Position numbers and translations under genes: made by a program. The notes beneath the pieces are model-generated. The model saw only the letters and a list, made by a program, of their open reading frames with translations. It was not told the origin of the DNA and did not search any database. This document shows positions 20,055 through 40,002 of a stretch of DNA of 41,189 nucleotides, one piece after another (the stretch's first letter is position 1; every line of letters begins with the position of its first letter). Location of the stretch: contig CAYMZA010000003.1 of assembly GCA_964394835.1 (NCBI GenBank), forward strand, positions 1 through 41,189. The letters run 5' to 3'. The stretch is from an uncultured Gammaproteobacteria bacterium (lineage in GTDB: Bacteria > Patescibacteriota > Patescibacteriia > UBA1558 > GWA2-36-10).

Positions 20055-23000
20055 TTAAGGAAGTGTACAATCCATATACCCATCTCTATCTCCATCACAA
20101 AATGCAGCATCTAAAACTTCTTCTATATTATCTGCCCATAGCCCTGCAATAACACTTGTGTTATCCTGAACTTCTGCTTGAGTATTCTCTATATATAGAC
20201 CACCAGTATCTATAGCAATATTTCTAGCAGCATTAGCACCAAGTGTTTTAGATGGACTTAACCAAATAGGATTAATATGTACTGGCGGATTAGCAGCATT
20301 ACACGCTTCTACTGCTTCTACTAAACCCTCAACGTGAGCACCAGCTACACCATCTGCAGCATCGTACGTGTTTGTACCTATAATATAATCATCATAATCA
20401 TTTATCGCATCACCACACCACATACCCTCATCAGTAATAGGTATTAAAACTCTTTGATAACCTGCCAACCAATTATAGTCTTCAGCTAATACTTTCATAG
20501 CATAAGCAGTATGCTCTGTTCTGTCTATGCTTTCACCATAACAATACCCAGGATCTGATTCATCTGCCCATTCTAGATTAATATTAATATTATTAGTAGT
20601 ATTATCCCAAAAATTAAAATAATCTACATCTTCTGTTTCGTATAAAGCAGAGCAATTACTAATTAAATTGCTATAAACATTACCAGTAGCCCAAACATCA
20701 TCACCAGAATCTAATGGCATAATATGTAATTTATAAGTAATATCTGAATCAATGCTTAATCTATTATTAACAGTTATTAAAGCATTACATATTGCAAGAG
20801 CAGCAGCATTCATACTACCAGACATATCAAAAGGAATAATAATTTCTACCTTTTTTTCTAATTTAAGAGTTGTTGGAACTCCAGTATCACAGGCCTCATA
20901 ACCATTAAAAGTTTCAAGAGTACCATCTTGTATAATACCATCACCACAATACCCTCCTGTATTTATACACATATCACACTGATATTGGTTATGCTCATTT
21001 GAATACTTAGGAGGAGAAGGAATAGACCAACCTAATATTTCACATGTTTCTCCATATGTAGTTTCTGCTGGCCCACCATCACCACAATACCCCCCAGCTG
21101 AAATCTCACATTTTTGTGTTCCCGTGGTTTGACATTCGTATCTACGACTTGGACTAGATTCTTGTGGTGTTGGACGACTTGGATAGTTTACTCCATCGCA
21201 TAATTCCTCATCAGCGCCATACGAATCAATATCACCATTACCACAATATCCTCCTGTGGTAATTTCACAATTTTGAGCACACTGATATTGATTATTTATA
21301 TCGGAGATACCTGGATTTGGAAAACTATAATCAGAGCCATCACATCTCTCGTCTGCATCTATTGTTGGATTACCATAAGGATCATTTGTGCCATCTTGAG
21401 ATATATTATCACCGCAATATCCACCAGCTGTTTTACTACACCTAAGTTCTATAGGATCAGAGCCAGTATTAGTACGACATTGATATTGACTCTCTGGATT
21501 ACCAATTGTTTCATGAGGTGCTGGCATAGGCCATCCTATATTATAATCACTTGTAGCTAAATCATAATCACATAATTCTTGAAAAGAATATTGATAAGTA
21601 GCATCACCACAATATTCATTAGTAAATGTACAATCATTATTACAACCATATGCATTATCTATAGAAGAATCATCCGGTAAAGGAATTGAGTAGTTATAGT
21701 AATCACATTCCTCTAACCCTGGGGGAGAATAACTTGCATCTTGTGTTATACCATCACCACATACTCCTTCGTATGCTGTACCAATAGTACATTCTCTAAA
21801 ACAAGAATTAGTGCAACTAATATCGCCATTTTCTGTACAATCCCAACCTTCTAAACCATTAGGAGTGCCAGTAGGATCACATTCTTCTGCTAATGGTGTA
21901 TATACATTATCTAAACAAGCAGAAGCTGGTAACCCATTAGTACAAATTGGTTGACAACTATCATCGATATTATTTGGGTCACTATCACAAGAATAAGGAC
22001 CAAGATTTTCACAATGATATGTTACTCCGTTATAAAATTCAATAGGACCAGGAAGGATCTCACATAATTCATAACCACCTTGAAATGTTTCATCGCCACA
22101 ATATCCTCCACACTCTACAGCTGTTGGTTCATACCAAGTACACTCTATTAAATTACCGCCAGCGTCAACAGTGCCAGCTGGATTGCAACCAACCCTTTGC
22201 TGATTCCACCATCCCAAATCCCCAGTACAACCATTGTCTAAATAATCTCCTGGCTCACACTCTTCATCATCAGTACCATCATCATCATAATCATCTATAG
22301 TTCCATTACCACAATATTCAGCAACTGTACCACCACCAGAAAAAATAGGTGTACCATTACAATATGCTACTAAATTTGATGATAAGTATGGTATATTATT
22401 AACACCACCCTCTGGACTTAAATTATTAGAAAAAGTAATACCGCCTTCATTATATTCAAAATCAGAAACTAAAGTGTAATCAAAAGGATTATTATTAGTA
22501 TTATCATATAAATATATCAATGAATTAACAGGACAAATAAATTCACCAGATACTTCATTCCAACATGTATTTGGATCTGCTCCTTCTGTATAACCATTAA
22601 ATAAATTAATTGGATCAACGGGCAAACTAATCCCTAGTACTGTACCTAATTCATCTGACCAAGAAGGCCATTTACTACTAGAAAGACCCCTAATAAAACT
22701 ACCAGCAGGTAACAAAGGATAATTATCTTTACAAGTTTCTCCAGCCAAACAGTCACTATTAGTAATACAAGGATTAGTAGGATGCATACTACAATATCTA
22801 TGATCTAATCCATATGAGTACAAAGAATTTTGTATTGAAATTAAATCACCTAAACGTTCTAGATCTCTACGTAACTCTAAACTATTTGATTCACAAACAT
22901 CTTCACCGGGACAATCAAAATCACTTGCACAATAAAGATGATCATTATCAACACATATATTATCATCCCTAGCTATATTAGTATTGAATTCTAATTCTTC

Positions 23001-26000
23001 TAATAATTGATTAAAAATATTAATAGTTGCAGCATTTGCACCTATATTATATGCAAGTAAATAAATATTTGTATGTAAATTAGAATTAGGATCACTTGCA
23101 TCTTCAATATTAACAGATGAAATATATACTGTATTACCAGCTCTATATGCTGGATAACCATCTATTAATATTTCTGCACCTGCCTCACCAGGATTAGGAG
23201 CATAAGTATTATACCAATCATATGCTGATAAATGTTCTTCGTTACTATATACTCTAATGCCTACAAAATTATCTGTATCTAAATTAACAATTGGGAACAT
23301 AAAATCTTGTAAAAGATTAGGATCTGTTAATGGATCTATTGGAATCTGAAGAGGTTCATCTGGTAAAGCAGGTAATGTTTCTCCACTAATCGTAAAATCA
23401 TCTACATAAAAGTTTGAACCATCTGCATCTGTAGGTGTATAACCCAAAGAATAACCTAATTCAAAATGTAAATTACCAGAACTATCTAATAATCTAGCTA
23501 CTTCATCATCAAAAATAAAATATCCCTCATATAATGTCCAATCATTATAAGTACCAGCCGGTATATCATAACCTAAGATTTGTTCTGTATAACAACGAGT
23601 TTGATATGGTTCATGTAAACAACAATAACCTGATTGATCTGCACACTCCTCATAAGGGCCACCATAAGCAGAACAATAAGTAGAAGCGCTACTAGAATCA
23701 TAAGATACGCATTGACTACCCCAACCTAAAGCATATGATAAACGAGGACGTATATAAGTATCGATGTCACCTTTGTAATAAAAATGTATAACATATTCTT
23801 CACCATATTTCCAATTTAAATTACCAACCTGATACGTTGCTCTAGTCCACATAGTCGTGTTATTGTACGGCCACGTAAAAGAATTACCTTCATTATATAC
23901 ATTACCACCTATGGTGCATTGATTACTTGACCATGTACAATTACTAGCGTGTCTATAACTACTAGGCCAAGAACCAGTACCATCACCCTCACACGCATCT
24001 TGAATACAAGTACCTGGATAAGCCTCATTAGGATCTTGATGCATTAATAAACTATGCGCTCCTGTCATTGCATCTAAACTACTAATTCCAACACTAGCAT
24101 GAGATTGACTATGGCTCTCCCAATTAATAGGCAAAGCTCCCACACTATCATCTTCAAATCCAGCTGTAACAACATTTTCAAAAACTCCTTCAGCATAATC
24201 CTTACAATACCTTGTTTTAAAATGCATATCATAACTAAATTCAAATGTATCAAAATCACTATAAAAATCAAAATAACCATCCGCATCATTAGGCCAAGGA
24301 TTTTCACAGAAAAATAAATCTATATTAGCACTAGCACTAGCAGACCCTAAACTTCCACCATCTATATTTACAGTAAGTACAGTTTGACCATTATCATTTT
24401 GGGATGTACCAGTAACTGTTTGTGCGTTATTATTAGTTAAAACAACTAAATTAGTATCATGTATATCCCATGAAAAAACAGGAGGAGGTATAGGTATAGG
24501 AGTTAAATTTAATAATGTACCAGCAACATCATATACTTCAGCTACAAAATCATTATCAAAATATGATTCATAATATGTATATGGACTAGGATCTATTAAA
24601 GCATAATTTATTTCACATAAATCAACTGCTGTATCAAAATCTTCAATAACACCTCTATTACCATTAATATTACCCACAATACTACCCGTAATATCCAATG
24701 TTAAACCATGTATACTTTCTACATTTTCATCTATAAATATAGTATAATTAGAAGAAATATTTAAATATGAAGAAGGATTAAATATTAACTGTGTTTCTAA
24801 ATCTCCATCTAAATCTCCATCTAAATCTTGAAATATATACGAACCACTAACTTCTTCCATTACACCAGCATTATCATAGTATATCTTAACATAATTACGA
24901 AGACTATTTCTATCCATTGTTTCTGTAAAATCCATAGATATAGCTGCATTAGGACATTCATTACTTCCATTAGGCTGTATATTTTCTACCCTTGGATTAT
25001 CATATGTAATACCAGGATCAATAACAGGTGTTAAAACATTTAATTCTCCAAATCCTGATTGCGTTACACCGCTCTGAACTGCTTCTGCTGTAATATGAAT
25101 ATTATTACCAACAAGTATACCAGTAGCTGTAGTATTTGAAAGATTATGATCAACCACACTAGCTACGGAAGAATCACTTGAATTCCAAGACCATATACAA
25201 GAAGTAGTTAAATCACATTGTATTGCTTGTCCACCAGGATAACAAGTACTAGTATTTGAATATGCTTGTGCTAAATAATCTATAGTATCATCAATATAAA
25301 TACTTTCATATATTGGACTTACAGCCACACTATCAACAATACAATTATCAGAACCAACTCCAAAAGTCCAAGAAAATTCACCACCATCTAGAGTATAACC
25401 ATAAATATTAGTTACATCACTTGATATAACTACATGATAATATTTATCAATAGGGAGAAGATTATGACTTAAAGACACGTGATATGCAGAAGGTATGGTC
25501 ACTTGTGAAGTGAAACTCGTTAGATTATCTGAATCATGAATAGCACAAGAAATATCAGTACAAGAATATATAGCGAAATTATTATTATTTAAAGTAGATG
25601 GGCTTATTTCAGTATTAAACTCAATCCAAACTTCTCCACTATCACAAGAATCTTCACAATCAGGACCATATCCTAATATTTCTAATCTTGGTGCCATTAT
25701 AATAGATTGCGAACTATCTGTAACACTATAATTTGTATTTTCAACCGTAATACCAACATAATTATCAGGAGTTAAATTCTCAGTAGAATTAGGACCAGCA
25801 GTTAAGGTTGTGTAACCTATATTAACACTGGAATTAGTAGCTGGAGCAATTGAGGCATAGGTATTGTTAGTCCCTAACCACCAACTATAATCATAGCTAC
25901 CACCACACATATTACAATTACTAGCATATGGTGAAGCATTAAAATCTCTGGTTTCATTAATATAGAGATTAGCATCATAACCCTGTGGGCTAACAATAAC

Positions 26001-28835
26001 ACTATCAACAACGCACATTATATCAGATGTTTTAAAATGCCATTCAAAATTAGGAGTTTCATCAGCTGGGCTCCACATTTCAGGTCCACTAGCTGCATGA
26101 AATGTACCCATCTCTACCATATACCAAGTGTTTGCACTAAGATCACTTATAGGGTTAAATACTAAACCCTCTGAATCACTACTATGATTAATAATTGTAA
26201 TATCACCGGAAACAGAAGAATCACTACATTCATTACTATTAAAAGGATCGCTAGCTCCAGTATTACATGTAAAAACTTGAAAATTATTAGCATCAAATAA
26301 ATCAGAATCATCTACATCACGAGTAAATAAAGCAACTAAATTTACATCCAATGAAGCATCTTCTGATTTATAACTATCTAAACCATCTGGCCAAGGAGAG
26401 GGTGTCTGTATATCATTGGAACAAGTATAATTAAATTTTAAACCAAATGGTATTTCAGGATCTACTGGTCCTACTCCAGTAGTAATATCCCAAGAATATT
26501 GACAAGAATTAGAGCCAAGAGAACAATCATTAGAACAATAATCCCCAGTATTACCAGGGCAACAATATAATCCTAAACCAGAGGAGTTACAATATGCATC
26601 ATTTGGACAAGAACCAACATTAAACATCATATTATTACTATCAACACTATCATTACGTATAATTTCAGCTTCTCCACTCATAGCATCAGTAGGAACTTTA
26701 GAATTTAAAACTTGATTATCATTCCAAATAACGCTAGATAAATCTGCACTTTCATTTTGACGAAACAGAATATCACTACTACCTAATGTATAACTACCAA
26801 AATATTCTCCATAAAAATTAACCTCCATGCCTTCAGGGCCATTATTTGGTTGCATTGAACAAATACCAGGACTAGGAATACCAGAGGTAATATTAAAAGA
26901 ATCATCATATGTATCGCTCTCTTCTCCATCATTACCTCTTATAATATATATATCATAATTAGTGCTAATACTAACTGCAGACGGAACCTTTGCTACAATA
27001 CTACTTTCTTGCCAAAAATTATTACCACATACTGCAGGAAAATCAAAACTAGCACTATATTCATTAGTACCATCTGTAAATATAACATCACTAACTGATG
27101 GAACATAATATCCAAAATTAAATCCCATTATAGTCACATATTCATCTATTGGTCCAGATAAAGGAGATATATTAGATATAATTGGTAATCCCCCTGCTAA
27201 ATCTGTAGCTAAAAAAAGATAAGGATTACTAATATCATTGGTAGTAGTATCGTCTCCGTCTGTATCTACAGTTAAACTAATAAGCCCTTGAATTAATGGG
27301 ACATTAGAACTTATATTAAAAGAATTAGTATAAGTCATATTAGCATCAGCATCTCCAAAATCTACAGTACTAGCTGCTCCAAAATTAATACCATGAATAT
27401 CTATCAAATCATCATAAATACCCTGATCAGGATCAGCTAAACAAATACCAGCGCGATTTATACTGTTTGCATCAAACCACTCTGTATTACTAGTATCTCC
27501 ACCATCTGTCACTACATCAACCTCTCCATCAATAACACCTGCTGGTACACCTATAATAATATGATCATCAAACCAATAATCATTAGTACAATCTGCATTT
27601 AAAGTATCAGGACTAAGACCATTAAGAAGAGCAGAGGGACCAGTAAAACGTACATAACCAGGATCATCACCAAAGCCAGAGCCAAAAACAGTTATTAGAT
27701 TATTAGCAGCTCCATTATCAGGAGATAAAGAAGTAATATGTGGACCGGATCCAGTACTCTCAATACAAGCATCAGGCATACTACAAACATCATCTGAGCA
27801 ACAACCTGAAACACAATCACTATCAGTACTACAATCTACTAAGAAATACATTTCATCTGAACTACCACTTGCATTTGTAACAATAATGTCACTAGATATA
27901 GCTTGACTATGAATAGTGGTGTCTATAATATCTCCATCAGGATCTTCTGTCCAACTATCAATAGTTAAAAATTGCTGAAACTCCGCACTTCCATTATGCG
28001 CTGTCATAGCAACGCTACTAGAACCAACTACAAAACCCTCAAAATTAATTCCACATATTTCTACACTCTGATCTACTGCTCCTCGTTCAGGAGTAATAGA
28101 TGCTATATTTAAACCAGGTGCTCCATCATGCACAACAAAAGATCCAGTATCTACATTAGACGGAGTATTATTATCAGTAACTTCTACAACCGAAGATCCA
28201 ATACCTACAGTTGGAACTTTAACTATAATCTTTCTATCATCCCAAAGTGGGTCAGAACCACCACATGAAACCACTTCTGCTACAACACCATCAAAAGTAA
28301 CAGTACCCATATCACTACCAAAGTTACAACCTCTGATATTAGCATAACTACCAACAGTACCACCACTCATAGGTCTAATTCTACAAATCTCTAATTCAGT
28401 TTGGCCACTTTCACAACAAAATGTATGTGGATCAGGATATACTATTGTAGATCCTCCACCACCAGTAGCCCCAGTAGCATCTGATAATTTATTCAAAAGA
28501 AAACGAGAAATAACATATGCTGATGATATTATAGATAGACCAATAACTGCATTTATTATAAGCATTTTAGCTTTTTTAACCTGTTCTTCATTACCCTTAG
28601 AAGTCATCCAAAGAAAACCACCGTATATAATTAAAACTACTGCTATTATACCTAATAATCCTAAAAATATATTAATAATACTAGCTGCAATCTCAGTAAC
28701 ACTTTTAGTACCTAAAGCTATACCTTCATTACCTAAAACATTACTACCAAAAACGTCTTCTTGGGCCAAAGCCTTAGGTACAAGCACTAACCAAGAAAAA
28801 AAACTAATAGCTAAGGTGTATAAAACTTTTTTCAT
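20055..28835 (-). CDS. Giant (2926 aa) pilin-anchored multidomain adhesin
   Basis: Signal peptide; TrbC/VirB2-like pilin segment (IIYGGFLWMTSKGNEEQVKKAK..NAVIGL); about 6 IPT/TIG repeats; Big_5/Big_2-like Ig domains; CBM-like domain; about 9 CG(D/N)..ExC repeats; C-terminal vWA (FDMSGSM..ITDE). Confidence 0.85.
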   Translation of the reverse strand: MKKVLYTLAISFFSWLVLVPKALAQEDVFGSNVLGNEGIALGTKSVTEIAASIINIFLGLLGIIAVVLIIYGGFLWMTSKGNEEQVKKAKMLIINAVIGLSIISSAYVISRFLLNKLSDATGATGGGGSTIVYPDPHTFCCESGQTELEICRIRPMSGGTVGSYANIRGCNFGSDMGTVTFDGVVAEVVSCGGSDPLWDDRKIIVKVPTVGIGSSVVEVTDNNTPSNVDTGSFVVHDGAPGLNIASITPERGAVDQSVEICGINFEGFVVGSSSVAMTAHNGSAEFQQFLTIDSWTEDPDGDIIDTTIHSQAISSDIIVTNASGSSDEMYFLVDCSTDSDCVSGCCSDDVCSMPDACIESTGSGPHITSLSPDNGAANNLITVFGSGFGDDPGYVRFTGPSALLNGLSPDTLNADCTNDYWFDDHIIIGVPAGVIDGEVDVVTDGGDTSNTEWFDANSINRAGICLADPDQGIYDDLIDIHGINFGAASTVDFGDADANMTYTNSFNISSNVPLIQGLISLTVDTDGDDTTTNDISNPYLFLATDLAGGLPIISNISPLSGPIDEYVTIMGFNFGYYVPSVSDVIFTDGTNEYSASFDFPAVCGNNFWQESSIVAKVPSAVSISTNYDIYIIRGNDGEESDTYDDSFNITSGIPSPGICSMQPNNGPEGMEVNFYGEYFGSYTLGSSDILFRQNESADLSSVIWNDNQVLNSKVPTDAMSGEAEIIRNDSVDSNNMMFNVGSCPNDAYCNSSGLGLYCCPGNTGDYCSNDCSLGSNSCQYSWDITTGVGPVDPEIPFGLKFNYTCSNDIQTPSPWPDGLDSYKSEDASLDVNLVALFTRDVDDSDLFDANNFQVFTCNTGASDPFNSNECSDSSVSGDITIINHSSDSEGLVFNPISDLSANTWYMVEMGTFHAASGPEMWSPADETPNFEWHFKTSDIMCVVDSVIVSPQGYDANLYINETRDFNASPYASNCNMCGGSYDYSWWLGTNNTYASIAPATNSSVNIGYTTLTAGPNSTENLTPDNYVGITVENTNYSVTDSSQSIIMAPRLEILGYGPDCEDSCDSGEVWIEFNTEISPSTLNNNNFAIYSCTDISCAIHDSDNLTSFTSQVTIPSAYHVSLSHNLLPIDKYYHVVISSDVTNIYGYTLDGGEFSWTFGVGSDNCIVDSVAVSPIYESIYIDDTIDYLAQAYSNTSTCYPGGQAIQCDLTTSCIWSWNSSDSSVASVVDHNLSNTTATGILVGNNIHITAEAVQSGVTQSGFGELNVLTPVIDPGITYDNPRVENIQPNGSNECPNAAISMDFTETMDRNSLRNYVKIYYDNAGVMEEVSGSYIFQDLDGDLDGDLETQLIFNPSSYLNISSNYTIFIDENVESIHGLTLDITGSIVGNINGNRGVIEDFDTAVDLCEINYALIDPSPYTYYESYFDNDFVAEVYDVAGTLLNLTPIPIPPPVFSWDIHDTNLVVLTNNNAQTVTGTSQNDNGQTVLTVNIDGGSLGSASASANIDLFFCENPWPNDADGYFDFYSDFDTFEFSYDMHFKTRYCKDYAEGVFENVVTAGFEDDSVGALPINWESHSQSHASVGISSLDAMTGAHSLLMHQDPNEAYPGTCIQDACEGDGTGSWPSSYRHASNCTWSSNQCTIGGNVYNEGNSFTWPYNNTTMWTRATYQVGNLNWKYGEEYVIHFYYKGDIDTYIRPRLSYALGWGSQCVSYDSSSASTYCSAYGGPYEECADQSGYCCLHEPYQTRCYTEQILGYDIPAGTYNDWTLYEGYFIFDDEVARLLDSSGNLHFELGYSLGYTPTDADGSNFYVDDFTISGETLPALPDEPLQIPIDPLTDPNLLQDFMFPIVNLDTDNFVGIRVYSNEEHLSAYDWYNTYAPNPGEAGAEILIDGYPAYRAGNTVYISSVNIEDASDPNSNLHTNIYLLAYNIGANAATINIFNQLLEELEFNTNIARDDNICVDNDHLYCASDFDCPGEDVCESNSLELRRDLERLGDLISIQNSLYSYGLDHRYCSMHPTNPCITNSDCLAGETCKDNYPLLPAGSFIRGLSSSKWPSWSDELGTVLGISLPVDPINLFNGYTEGADPNTCWNEVSGEFICPVNSLIYLYDNTNNNPFDYTLVSDFEYNEGGITFSNNLSPEGGVNNIPYLSSNLVAYCNGTPIFSGGGTVAEYCGNGTIDDYDDDGTDDEECEPGDYLDNGCTGDLGWWNQQRVGCNPAGTVDAGGNLIECTWYEPTAVECGGYCGDETFQGGYELCEILPGPIEFYNGVTYHCENLGPYSCDSDPNNIDDSCQPICTNGLPASACLDNVYTPLAEECDPTGTPNGLEGWDCTENGDISCTNSCFRECTIGTAYEGVCGDGITQDASYSPPGLEECDYYNYSIPLPDDSSIDNAYGCNNDCTFTNEYCGDATYQYSFQELCDYDLATSDYNIGWPMPAPHETIGNPESQYQCRTNTGSDPIELRCSKTAGGYCGDNISQDGTNDPYGNPTIDADERCDGSDYSFPNPGISDINNQYQCAQNCEITTGGYCGNGDIDSYGADEELCDGVNYPSRPTPQESSPSRRYECQTTGTQKCEISAGGYCGDGGPAETTYGETCEILGWSIPSPPKYSNEHNQYQCDMCINTGGYCGDGIIQDGTLETFNGYEACDTGVPTTLKLEKKVEIIIPFDMSGSMNAAALAICNALITVNNRLSIDSDITYKLHIMPLDSGDDVWATGNVYSNLISNCSALYETEDVDYFNFWDNTTNNININLEWADESDPGYCYGESIDRTEHTAYAMKVLAEDYNWLAGYQRVLIPITDEGMWCGDAINDYDDYIIGTNTYDAADGVAGAHVEGLVEAVEACNAANPPVHINPIWLSPSKTLGANAARNIAIDTGGLYIENTQAEVQDNTSVIAGLWADNIEEVLDAAFCDGDRDGYMDCTLP
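24796..24828 (-). repeat. 12-bp tandem repeat (about 2.7 copies) encoding DLDGDLDGDLE
   Basis: TCTAAATCTCCA x2 plus a partial copy. Confidence 0.7.
28501..28680 (-). repeat. Pilin-coding direct repeat, copy in the giant gene
   Basis: 28556-28625 (70 bp) and 28648-28680 (33 bp) are identical to 30122-30191 and 30214-30246. Confidence 0.9.
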
Positions 28836-30431: not shown

Positions 30432-30863
30432 TTATAGCTTTTCTTTTACTAATTTTTGTACTATTTTACCATCAGCCTGACCTTTTGTTTTAGCCATAAC
30501 TTGTTTCATAACTAAACCAAAATTACTTTCTCCAGAAGCTATTATTTCATCCACAATCTTACTAATATTTTCTTCAGACATCATAGCTGGTAAATATTCT
30601 TCCAATATCTTTAACTCTACCTCTTCTTTTTCAACTAAATCTTGTCTATCACCTTGTTTAAAGGAGGTTATAGAATCTTGTCTTTTTTTAACTTCTTTAC
30701 GTATTATATTAATAATCTCTTCATCATCTAAAGAATCTTTTTTTAATTCAATACTTTTATTCTGTAGACTACTTTTAAGCATTCTTAAAGTACCAGTTTT
30801 TACTGTATCTTTAGCTTTTAAAGCTATATTTAAGTTATTTTCTATATCCTTTTGTAAAGACAT
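30432..30863 (-). CDS. yqeY: GatB/YqeY domain protein
   Basis: LRMLKS, KEVKKRQDS, YLPAMMSEE, GLVMK and GQADGK; follows rpsU. Confidence 0.92.
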   Translation of the reverse strand: MSLQKDIENNLNIALKAKDTVKTGTLRMLKSSLQNKSIELKKDSLDDEEIINIIRKEVKKRQDSITSFKQGDRQDLVEKEEVELKILEEYLPAMMSEENISKIVDEIIASGESNFGLVMKQVMAKTKGQADGKIVQKLVKEKL

Positions 30864-30919: not shown

Positions 30920-31165
30920 CTATCTTCTTTTCTTGTTTTTAAAGGCATATTCATCTAATTTACCAATCTTTTTAAGATAATCCATTTTAGAAGTGATTTC
31001 TTTACGACGTAAAGCTGTATCTTTCATATCTTTTTTAGTTTTTGGCTTATTAAAAAATCTGATCTTTCTAGCTTGTAATATCTTACCACTTTGAATAGTT
31101 TTCTTAGTAAATCTTCTTAGCATTGCTTCAAAAGACTCATTACCCTTTCTTTTAACTTCTAACAA
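30920..31165 (-). CDS. rpsU: 30S ribosomal protein bS21 (TTG start, extended C-terminus)
   Basis: EVKRKGNESFEAMLRRFTKK..RFFNKP; synteny with yqeY. Confidence 0.88.
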   Translation of the reverse strand: MLEVKRKGNESFEAMLRRFTKKTIQSGKILQARKIRFFNKPKTKKDMKDTALRRKEITSKMDYLKKIGKLDEYAFKNKKRR

Positions 31166-31170
31166 ATTTC

Positions 31171-31177
31171 CACCTCC
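31171..31177 (-). promoter_or_regulatory. Strong Shine-Dalgarno of rpsU
   Basis: GGAGGTG 5 nt upstream of the TTG start. Confidence 0.8.
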
Positions 31178-31235
31178 GTTTCTTTATTAATTACACTATT
31201 ATAATGACAGATTTCTAAACAAAAGTCAATAAATA

Positions 31236-32543
31236 TCATTTCTTAAGTTTAATACTCTTAACTTTAACTTTATCTAATCTTTTTCTTAACTCTTTTTTAA
31301 TCTTTTTATAGTCTACAATCTCCTGTACTCCACTTTCCATATCTCTAAGAAGAACAGTATTATCTGATATTTCTTTTTGACCCATAATCAATGTATATCT
31401 AGCATTTTTCTTATTAGCCATATCTAATTGATCTTTTAATCCTTTCTTAGACATATTTTCAGTAACAAGAAAATCATTGTCTTTTAATTCTTCAAAAAGT
31501 TGCAAAGCTTTTTTTCTAGCTTCAATACCTAATTGAGCAACATATGCATCAAAATATTTAGTTTTATCTATATCTATTTTACTTTTCTGCATTTTCATTA
31601 ATACCCTTTCTATACCTATAGCAAAACCAACAGCGGGAGTTTCTCTACCACCTAATAGTTTAGATAATTCATCATAACGACCACCACCACCCAAAGCTAA
31701 TAACTTACCCTTATCTCCCTTAGCTATTATTTCCCAAGCTGTTTTAGTATAGTAGTCTAAACCTCTAACAATATTTTGATTTAAAGTATAGTCTATCTTT
31801 AACTCATCTAAATATTCTAACACTAACATAAAGTGATCTTTACAATCATCACAAAGATGATCTACCATTTTAGGAGCATTCTCAGCTAAGCCACTACACT
31901 TCTTATTCTTACAATCTAATAACCTCATAGTATTATTAATAAACCTTTTCTTACAATCAACACATAAATCTTTTTTATAATCCTGATAATATGATTTTAA
32001 TGCTTTTAAATAATGAGGACGACACTCACTATCACCAACACTATTTATTTGAATATCTACTTCTACTCCGCATTCTTTAAGAATATTAGAGGACATAGCA
32101 ATTAACTGAGCGTCTATAATGGGGTCATTAGAACCTATAGACTCAAAACCAAATTGCCAAAACTGCCTATACCTACCTGCCTGAGGCTTATCATGACGAA
32201 ACTGAGGCCCTATATAGTATAGTTTAACAGGTTGAGGAAGATTTAACATACCATGTTCAATATAGCTACGCATAACACCTGCTGTACCTTCAGGACGTAA
32301 AGATAACTTATCACCACCTTGACTAGTAAAAGAATACATTTCTTTACTAACTATATCTGTTTCTTCACCTACTGTTCTTTTAAAAAGAGGTGTAAATTCA
32401 ACTATTGGTGTATCTATCCGATTATACCCATGACAATGGGCATACTTTTTAACTTTTGATTTCACAAAATCAAAATATACTTGCTCATCAGGAAGAATAT
32501 CTTTCATTCCTTTAACTAATTGGATCTTACTTTTTTTAGCCAT
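31236..32543 (-). CDS. hisS: Histidine--tRNA ligase
   Basis: LRPEGTA, PQAGRYRQFWQ, RGLDYY and GGGRYD. Confidence 0.98.
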   Translation of the reverse strand: MAKKSKIQLVKGMKDILPDEQVYFDFVKSKVKKYAHCHGYNRIDTPIVEFTPLFKRTVGEETDIVSKEMYSFTSQGGDKLSLRPEGTAGVMRSYIEHGMLNLPQPVKLYYIGPQFRHDKPQAGRYRQFWQFGFESIGSNDPIIDAQLIAMSSNILKECGVEVDIQINSVGDSECRPHYLKALKSYYQDYKKDLCVDCKKRFINNTMRLLDCKNKKCSGLAENAPKMVDHLCDDCKDHFMLVLEYLDELKIDYTLNQNIVRGLDYYTKTAWEIIAKGDKGKLLALGGGGRYDELSKLLGGRETPAVGFAIGIERVLMKMQKSKIDIDKTKYFDAYVAQLGIEARKKALQLFEELKDNDFLVTENMSKKGLKDQLDMANKKNARYTLIMGQKEISDNTVLLRDMESGVQEIVDYKKIKKELRKRLDKVKVKSIKLKK

Positions 32544-39441: not shown

Positions 39442-39633
39442 TTACAAAAAGAATGCAGTATCTTCTCCACCGCTATTTTCAAATAACGGTGAAGAATCTA
39501 CATCACAATCTTCCTGATTAAAGTGAGGCGAACATTCTTCTGCTTCCACAAAATTCAATTCATCCTCTGGGTTATAACCATCGATATATTGACGACATTT
39601 ACCCCTCCTAGTGTCTGGCATTCTCTTACTCAT
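39442..39633 (-). CDS. Hypothetical 63-aa protein (basic N-terminus, acidic C-terminus)
   Basis: AAGGAG SD 6 nt upstream; follows the 95-aa gene. Confidence 0.55.
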   Translation of the reverse strand: MSKRMPDTRRGKCRQYIDGYNPEDELNFVEAEECSPHFNQEDCDVDSSPLFENSGGEDTAFFL

Positions 39634-39657
39634 GACTAACTCCTTTCTTTTTTGTTG

Positions 39658-39945
39658 TTAAAATGATGAGTTGATAGCATCAAGATTCCACTTAATACGT
39701 TGCAGTAGAATACGAGTTGCTTTCTTGCGCCATTCAGGTACGTTAACAATGATACAACGCAGACTCTGATCACTAATGTTATTGTGTGACAAAAGTTCTT
39801 CAGCAGCCCTTTCACGCCAATTAGGATTATTACGAATAACTTCTTCTAGCTTAGAACTGTTAGGGTTACTAGTAACAAAATCTAACCAAGCACGCTGTAC
39901 AGCAATAGTTTGAGGAGATTGACACTCCCAAAATTGATTTTTCAT
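39658..39945 (-). CDS. Hypothetical 95-aa protein with about 24-aa helical repeats
   Basis: AAGGAGGTGA SD; internal repeat L..II.N.P.WR..A...LL. Confidence 0.7.
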   Translation of the reverse strand: MKNQFWECQSPQTIAVQRAWLDFVTSNPNSSKLEEVIRNNPNWRERAAEELLSHNNISDQSLRCIIVNVPEWRKKATRILLQRIKWNLDAINSSF

Positions 39946-39973
39946 GATTCACCTCCTTTTGGTGTTAAAGAAC

Positions 39974-40002
39974 AAAAAATGACTATCAGTTATTGATAGT
40001 CA
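39974..40002 (-). terminator. Attenuator terminator, unit B
   Basis: TGACTATCA-ATAAC-TGATAGTCA followed by TTTTTT. Confidence 0.8.

Follow-up and report, generated by a model that had tools for sequence, protein, structure and literature searches.

Why does a single ribosomal-protein gene carry an exceptionally strong Shine-Dalgarno (SD) sequence in a genome in which the bulk of the genes do without one? The question is raised by rpsU, the gene for ribosomal protein bS21, which is present as a single copy in this 602-kb, 54-contig assembly of 27.8% GC from a tiny-genome CPR (Patescibacteria) bacterium and lies in the window (the whole stretch of DNA analysed, 41,189 nucleotides). The initial annotation proposed that this lineage may use the same circuit as Bacteroidia, possibly by convergence, namely anti-SD sequestration by bS21, bS18 and bS6. 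The features at and around rpsU are as follows.

30432..30863, minus strand: yqeY-like gene (Pfam YqeY, E = 5e-42), without an SD, 57 nt downstream of rpsU
30920..31165, minus strand: rpsU, encoding bS21 of 81 aa from a TTG start (ORF list and Pfam PF01165, E = 1.1e-7)
31170..31183, minus strand: extended SD site AGAAA-C-GGAGGUGG (sequence and RNAduplex)
31201..31229, minus strand: promoter-like TTGACT-17 nt-CATTAT with a TG extension (consensus scan)
31236..32543, minus strand: hisS, the upstream neighbour (Pfam tRNA-synt_His), whose stop lies 70 nt ahead of the rpsU start

The encoded protein belongs to the bS21 family with a profile score of 31.9 bits against a gathering cut-off of 27 (Pfam PF01165 Ribosomal_S21). 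No terminator-like site was found in the intergenic stretch between rpsU and the yqeY-like gene. The position of the promoter-like site would give rpsU a 5' UTR of roughly 30 nt, a tentative estimate because promoter-like sites in the rpsU region were no more frequent than in shuffled sequences (3 versus 3.2). No intrinsic folding was evident in the rpsU leader (MFE z = -0.25), and its SD site is therefore free for pairing in trans.

On the minus strand, the sequence ahead of the rpsU start reads ...UAAUAAAGAAACGGAGGUGGAAAU-UUG, and the GGAGGTG that had been annotated 5 nt ahead of the TTG start is present at plus-strand positions 31171-31177. The complementarity to the 16S rRNA extends over a longer region: GGAGGUGG (31170-31177) pairs with UCACCUCC of the 16S rRNA, the final pair being G-U, C31178 is bulged, and AGAAA (31179-31183) pairs with UUUCU of the 16S rRNA, with a spacing of four nucleotides (AAAU) between the site and the TTG. 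Altogether, 13/13 nt of the 16S 3' tail UCACCUCCUUUCU, corresponding to nucleotides 1532-1544, are paired around the one bulged C at -17.5 kcal/mol (RNAduplex). The longest unbroken run of this helix is 8 bp, so that its conserved single-base bulge contrasts with the 9-13 consecutive base pairs in Bacteroidia, which belong to a different phylum. The tail was read from the following gene.

C8:17075-18558: complete 16S rRNA gene, the one in the assembly, with the 3' end GGATCACCTCCTTTCT

The 16S gene ends with ...GGAUCACCUCCUUUCU, followed by AAGGAG. The canonical anti-SD, including the CCUCC named in the initial annotation, and the full 3' tail are retained, and the tail reads the same in six relatives. 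The spacer right after the tail (C8:18545-18575 and the same place in the six relatives) is (A/G)GGAG, a complement of the anti-SD that could fold with it into a hairpin in the pre-rRNA and so mask the 16S tail.

We then compared rpsU with other ribosomal-protein genes, 32 of which were named by Pfam among 103 submitted ORFs. These comprised the window ORFs except the 2925-aa one (the window holds one ORF of about this length at 20055-28832, minus strand), the ORFs of four small contigs and, from the other fetched contigs, small ORFs with basic products, and the resulting set covers ribosomal proteins of 60 aa or longer encoded on the fetched contigs. The rpsU site was the strongest of the 32 by 6.6 kcal/mol, followed by uL24 (-10.9 kcal/mol) and uS15 (-10.3 kcal/mol), and the remaining 29 genes were weaker than -7 kcal/mol. 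Two predictors of bS21 autoregulation have been published, that rpsU is the winner among the ribosomal-protein genes and that its pairing exceeds -13 kcal/mol in strength (McNutt 2023, PMC9976891). The rpsU gene of this genome has both properties, with energies calculated by RNAduplex instead of the authors' free_scan. The suggestion that rpsU alone has a strong SD was thus correct among the 32 ribosomal-protein genes and incorrect for the genome, in which 44/603 ORFs have an SD of 6 nt or longer at a candidate start.

An alternative explanation of the rpsU site is an ordinary but very strong initiation region. The rpsU gene is short and separately transcribed, starts from a weak GTG or TTG, and has to keep pace with ribosomal proteins made from operons. 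In this view, a long SD would simply maximise initiation and start fidelity without any sensing of bS21. Against this, nothing comparable was found in the other 31 ribosomal-protein genes, so the explanation does not account for the singularity of rpsU among them, nor does it account for pairing to the very end of the tail. A helix of 12-13 bp also far exceeds the 7 bp or fewer described as typical of E. coli initiation complexes (PMC13000457), and E. coli rpsU has just a 6-bp site of -8.5 kcal/mol.

SD use across the genome was assessed with 604 non-overlapping ORFs of at least 60 aa (coding density 89%), whose starts came from custom ORF calling. Exact SD matches of a 4-mer or longer preceded 84/596 first starts and 402/1812 internal control sites, and matches of a 6-mer or longer preceded 30/596 first starts and 27/1812 control sites. 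Pairing with the tail at -4 kcal/mol or stronger was observed at 129/593 real versus 157/583 mock sites and at -6 kcal/mol or stronger at 74/593 versus 86/583, and 28 real versus 12 mock sites reached -10 kcal/mol and 15 versus 2 reached -12 kcal/mol. In Flavobacteriales, mock SD sites are likewise described as outnumbering real ones at weak thresholds (McNutt 2023, PMC9976891). The frequency of G was flat, at 5-13%, across positions -20 to -1 of the start codons genome-wide. As a measure of SD use, the gene fraction at -8 kcal/mol or stronger was discarded, as it failed to tell E. coli (0.17-0.20) apart from CPR loci, and exact 4-mer matches with a mock control were adopted. SD use at the first start, the best nearby start and mock sites was 0.10, 0.15 and 0.07 in this genome, compared with 0.34, 0.41 and 0.07 in 50 kb of E. 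coli analysed with the same pipeline. The genome is SD-poor yet not SD-free. The rarity of SDs that had been surmised from a few leaders holds as a depletion in the bulk of the genes, and the housekeeping leaders named at that time were A/T-rich and without an SD on re-inspection. The A at -3 that had been noted in most of them did not stand as a signal, because its frequency of 55% is not enriched over a background of about 50%. The actual peaks were T at -1 (63%) and A at -6 and -11 (63% and 62%, respectively), a Kozak-like start context unlike the reported A-3. Non-ATG starts made up 14% genome-wide. When genes are called in CPR genomes, one class would be poorly served by start models that presuppose an SD, and another by models that presuppose none.

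Conservation of the extended site was examined in relatives labelled as Komeilibacteria, Parcubacteria or Patescibacteria group. The rpsU gene was present in 36/39 genomes of the family, the source genome counted, and the leaders read AGAAA(G)-N-(G)GAGGTG(A) in 30/30 family loci compared, with the source genome's own among them. A site of -13 kcal/mol or stronger preceded rpsU in 30/30 loci of the family, 20/20 of other families of the order, 49/58 of the class and 30/39 of other classes of the phylum, where rpsU had been located in 58/60 loci of the class sample and 39/40 of the other classes. Two more class loci (L078 and L087) carry the motif, within which the start call fell. The rpsU SD is thus kept in relatives well beyond the family. 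Among the strong leaders, at least 3 nt of the terminal UUUCU were paired in 30/30 loci of the family, 20/20 of the order, 43/49 of the class and 22/30 of the other classes. A single mRNA bulge without a gap on the rRNA side was found in 26/30, 16/20, 22/49 and 6/30 of them, respectively, and the helix was contiguous in 2, 1, 21 and 17. The last pair was 4-7 nt from the start codon in 79/99 strong leaders. rpsU also had the strongest site of its 20-kb locus in 19/20 loci of the order, 50/58 of the class and 27/39 of the other classes.

The position of the bulge shifts among relatives, from after A5 in this genome to after G6 in a genome of the same genus and after G7 in other families. The leaders AGAAA-C-GGAGGTG here, AGAAAG-A-GAGGTG in the same genus and AGAAAGG-A-AGGTGA in other families of the order resemble compensatory variants, all three of which retain full pairing and exactly one extra base. 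We considered the bulge as a sign of an altered 16S tail and rejected this idea, as the tails were identical in 7/7 genomes of the order with a complete 3' end (no 16S was recovered from two further genomes, and 5' fragments alone from two others). The bulge is therefore real, and its position shifts against an invariant 16S tail. The near-universal pairing of the terminal UUUCU in relatives and a helix length held at 12-13 bp are further points against mere strength of initiation.

The same survey bears on the possibility that free bS21 binds its own leader as a mimic of its rRNA site. Many ribosomal-protein genes are under autogenous control by leader mimicry of an rRNA site. However, what the rpsU leader shows is complementarity to the 16S tail and not resemblance, stable structure is lacking (z = -0.25), and the conserved positions are exactly the ones that pair with the tail. 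We consider such classical control of rpsU very improbable.

Non-ATG starts of rpsU were found in 26/30 loci of the family, 15/20 of the order, 33/58 of the class and 23/39 of the other classes, and the extended site accompanied 67/71 non-ATG rpsU genes versus 32/46 ATG rpsU genes. This association would be expected of an initiation region selected for strength, which is also consistent with the extended rpsU site in SD-rich relatives. Yet the extended site does not merely compensate for a weak start codon, because 32 of the 46 rpsU genes starting with ATG have it as well. Taking both sides together, we regard an ordinary strong initiation region as possible, if doubtful.

Our preferred reading, to which we assign a probability of about one half, is a bS21-gated extended SD-anti-SD helix that operates without sequestration of the Bacteroidia type. 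At the level of translation, the rpsU leader would sense whether the 30S subunit is occupied by bS21, by forming a helix of 12-13 bp, here with one bulged base, with the entire single-stranded 16S tail (1532-1544). A helix over the whole tail would sterically exclude the C-terminal helix of bound bS21, and rpsU mRNA would then be initiated mainly on 30S subunits lacking or releasing bS21, resulting in a homeostatic loop. The weak GTG/TTG start may assist gating by making initiation dependent on the helix. We infer formation of this helix on ribosomes, exclusion of bS21 and the resulting regulation of bS21 synthesis by comparison with Flavobacterium johnsoniae, in which a 13-bp helix of rpsU mRNA with the same segment of the 16S tail is described to exclude the C-terminal helix of bS21 (PMC13000457) and rpsU to be initiated mainly on 30S subunits lacking or releasing bS21 (PMC9976891, PMC13000453, PMC13000457). 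The rpsU gene analysed here resembles the autoregulated rpsU of F. johnsoniae and other Bacteroidia, as these reports describe it, in having the strongest SD of the ribosomal-protein genes, a short leader and conservation across a large clade (PMC7797042, PMC9976891, PMC13000453, PMC13000457). The retention of the anti-SD and the full 16S tail together with the genome-wide depletion of SDs is also shared with Bacteroidia. One point against gating is the bulge, which interrupts the rpsU helix; in F. johnsoniae, single mismatches were reported to abolish initiation by wild-type ribosomes (Naeem 2026, PMC13000453).

A dependence of initiation on a weak start codon has a precedent in infC, the gene for IF3, which is autoregulated through a non-canonical start codon. 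In both cases, a weak start codon would tie initiation to the state of the initiation machinery, although infC senses IF3 and has no extended SD. The IF3 ORF of this genome, as called from a TTG (C2:55177-55524; L116:15178-15522), enters the IF3_N profile at position 46, and its true start is probably a non-canonical codon farther upstream.

Does the lineage also possess the platform pocket by which Bacteroidia sequester the anti-SD? In the Bacteroidota-type system, the pocket involves Tyr54 of a bS21 with a weakly basic C-terminal domain, a C-terminal helix of bS6 with Trp100, Arg103 and Lys107, and the bS18 residues Tyr32, Lys/Arg37, Phe50, Asn56 and Gln58; the C-terminal domain of Bacteroidetes bS21 was described as less basic (Jha 2021, PMC7797042). 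The bS21 encoded in the window is indeed long (81 aa) with a basic tail containing Tyr and Phe, as first annotated, and its C-terminal domain has a pI of 10.2 with Tyr63, Tyr73 and Phe75. The residue at the spacing of Tyr54, counted from KPKT (the KPS/T motif) without alignment to F. johnsoniae, is Lys55, and the nearest aromatic residue is Tyr63. The AF2 model (pLDDT of 91) has helices at residues 11-25, 27-37, 43-66 and 69-79, where a conserved extension, (D/E)YL(K/R)KIGKL(D/E)E, forms the end of the long helix (43-66) and the extra helix (69-79). Unlike its counterpart in Bacteroidia, the C-terminal domain is basic and longer; it carries the (D/E)YL(K/R)KIGKL motif and an additional helix at its end. 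A PDB sequence search with bS21 did not return 7JIL (F. johnsoniae) among the 21 matches at an E of 0.01 or better, the best relatives being Firmicutes bS21, and Foldseek of the AF2 model against the PDB gave weak bS21 matches only (E of 0.8 or worse). The partner bS18 was found with 72 aa, and bS6 was located on another contig.

C36:1847-2356 (L114): bS6 of 170 aa, with an S6 domain at residues 2-93 and a tail of ~75 aa

The bS6 tail is repetitive and E/K-rich, of the KEEKxEE(V/I)KEE type. bS6 contains no Trp, and the Trp100 helix of Bacteroidia was not seen in it, as judged without aligning it to the F. johnsoniae protein. A shared circuit in which bS21, bS18 and bS6 sequester the anti-SD is accordingly not supported, given a basic bS21, no aromatic residue at the Tyr54 spacing and a bS6 without Trp. 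The good SDs of about 45 other genes also argue against it, as do SD-rich relatives with the same rpsU site and eight SD-poor relatives without detected bS21.

The latter two observations come from 10-20 kb samples of the relatives, with one E. coli locus as the sample outside Patescibacteria. Of 67 SD-poor loci, 88% had the extended rpsU site, as did 78% of 18 SD-rich ones, and the Saccharibacteria-labelled locus L161 (same contig as L215) is SD-rich and has a bulged rpsU site, GAAAGG-C-AGGUGA, ahead of a TTG start. bS21 was detected neither by a protein query nor by PF01165 in 11/111 sampled genomes of the phylum. In eight genomes without detectable bS21, a small sample in which two loci look like TGA-recoding genomes, SD use was 0.14, 0.16 and 0.11 at the first start, the best nearby start and mock sites (10-kb stretches, 74 ORFs). 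As these genomes are also SD-poor, SD scarcity in the phylum does not need bS21; together with the SD-rich relatives that have the site, this indicates that the link between bS21 and SD-blindness does not carry over. SD scarcity that does not track the presence of bS21 sets this genome apart from Bacteroidia, as does an rpsU that is not the sole SD-led gene. SD use was 0.20 in loci with the C-terminal bS21 motif and 0.32 in those without it, groups that represent different clades, and the length of the bS21 tail showed no clear correlation with SD use (Spearman -0.12, p = 0.21). The association between motif and SD use is a lead only, as the split follows clade boundaries.

Because SD scarcity in the phylum looks independent of bS21, we propose that gating would work without a platform pocket of the Bacteroidia type. 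Steric gating alone appears to be the most economical reading, provided that a tail-wide helix and the C-terminal helix of bS21 are incompatible here too. Judged from the sequences, the lineage shows the hallmark of bS21 autoregulation, conserved to great phylogenetic depth, but no evident sequestration pocket. Such a finding would separate bS21 gating from the platform pocket of Bacteroidia. A comparable case is Chlorobia, for which autoregulation was likewise predicted from the rpsU SD alone; their bS21 is described as lacking Tyr54, with a mechanism expected to be similar, not identical, and they are described as retaining 11 further residues of bS21, bS18 and bS6 that contact the tail (PMC9976891). 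Yeast ribosomes deficient in eS26 (cited in PMC9976891) offer a more distant parallel, in which the absence of a protein at the mRNA exit platform alters mRNA selection, as would be the case here; eS26 differs in being an unrelated, eukaryotic protein that acts without an rRNA-mRNA helix.

The prediction of bS21 autoregulation had been limited to Bacteroidia and Chlorobia, as presented in McNutt 2023 (PMC9976891). For CPR bacteria, bS21 was described as enlarged and often absent and the anti-SD motif as missing in some Parcubacteria (Tsurumaki 2022, PMC9297842), with no statement on rpsU leaders. No report of an extended rpsU SD in CPR was found in the full-text literature, supplements aside. 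Added here are the bulged architecture, a survey of relatives from the order up to the phylum level, and the uncoupling of the site from bS21 presence and SD use. So far, bS21-based specialised ribosomes have been demonstrated for a single organism, with predictions confined to Bacteroidota, and their genomic hallmark now extends across another phylum, one that is very deep and little understood. The prediction is testable in the few cultivable or tractable Patescibacteria; the Saccharibacteria-labelled L161 has the same bulged site.

The extended site of rpsU is not unique in the genome. By pairing energy, rpsU ranked 4th of 600 ORFs, and a whole-genome scan revealed seven sites at -17 kcal/mol or stronger with a start codon and an ORF behind, belonging to rpsU and six small non-ribosomal ORFs of 36-120 aa. 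The Flavobacteriales pattern, with rpsU as the sole gene with an exceptional SD, was therefore not observed. Two of the other genes are as follows.

C1:26456-26845 (L123:6456-6845), minus strand: T4SS_pilin gene, 120 aa (Pfam, E = 1.4e-8)
39658..39969, minus strand: second extended-SD gene of the window, an orphan ORF of 95 aa (39658-39945) with AAAAGGAGGTGA, -18.1 kcal/mol

The T4SS_pilin leader AGAAAGGGGGUGA matches the 16S tail over the full 13 bp, with one G-U pair, at -21.0 kcal/mol, and no ORF of the genome has a stronger SD. The 95-aa ORF has GTTCTTTAAC upstream of AAAAGGAGGTGA, a GC content of 0.37 versus a genome mean of 0.28, and no Pfam match. About 45 accessory genes carry AAGGAGG. 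Because of these SD-led genes and the six other extended-SD ORFs, the anti-SD is evidently usable, a point which, along with equally long sites in genes expected to be highly expressed, such as the T4SS pilin, is compatible with strong initiation as the sole function of the rpsU site.

The small set of extended-SD genes also raises the possibility of an inherited leader with another role, for example an assembly checkpoint on the 3' tail of immature 30S particles or stabilisation of the short mRNA by ribosome docking, with the device common to a specialised-translation set. Seven extended-SD ORFs in one genome and the occurrence of the feature throughout the phylum regardless of SD usage fit this view. 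Nothing specific supports it, however, and the function in the one studied system is bS21 feedback, so that we consider another role improbable.

A more far-reaching version of bS21 gating would include the other extended-SD genes. Independently of Bacteroidota, a "second channel" of translation gated by bS21 may have arisen in Patescibacteria or been inherited by them, in which a whole-tail helix of 12-13 bp, usually bulged, would form only on 30S subunits without bS21. The occluding element would be the CPR-specific long C-terminal helix together with the extra terminal helix, (D/E)YL(K/R)KIGKL, and the channel would serve rpsU for homeostasis and a handful of extended-SD genes such as that of the T4SS pilin. 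We consider this version rather unlikely; if it were true, ribosome composition, and not transcription alone, would control these genes in regulator-poor organisms.

The SD-led ORFs as a group are short (median of 135 versus 248 aa) and slightly GC-richer (0.31 versus 0.27), and they are dispersed among core genes across 20 or more contigs. Contaminant contigs as their origin were rejected on the basis of this dispersal, the core-gene neighbours and the small difference in GC. Of the 32 SD-led ORFs scanned against Pfam, 24 had no family, and the matches included Mu Gam, a PD-(D/E)XK nuclease, a KAS III-like enzyme, two receiver domains, a Por_Secre_tail protein and the T4SS pilin. In the window, the 95-aa orphan ORF neighbours a second orphan of 63 aa (39442-39945, minus strand, for both); the two have a GC content of 0.37-0.38 and strong SDs, sit between peptidase genes and rplA, and neither has a Pfam match.

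A leader motif, GTTC-N1-2-TT(TAAC), was noticed between a promoter-like site and the AAGGAGG SD of accessory genes.

39946-39990, minus strand: GTTC leader motif in the window, which also occurs on contigs C3, C4, C5, C7, C8, C9, C11, C13, C19, C21 and others

The motif was found upstream of 24/43 SD-led versus 4/519 SD-less ORFs (Fisher p about 1e-26), and it resembles a weak anti-SD (UUCUUU). A hairpin between the motif and the SD was unsupported, as it appeared in 10/24 MFE folds with energies no better than shuffles (median z = -0.31).

Two further observations concern individual SD-led genes. On contig C21, where 3/5 ORFs are SD-led and the GC content is 0.316, an SD-led protein of 949 aa (C21:3021-5870; L124) ends in a Por_Secre_tail / CHU_C domain for type IX secretion sorting, a domain characteristic of Bacteroidota and unexpected in a CPR genome. 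At C19:5700-9390 (L125), four small SD-led ORFs, including one for a Mu Gam-like protein, lie beside a gene of the phage-integrase family, and this cluster is probably a remnant of a mobile element.
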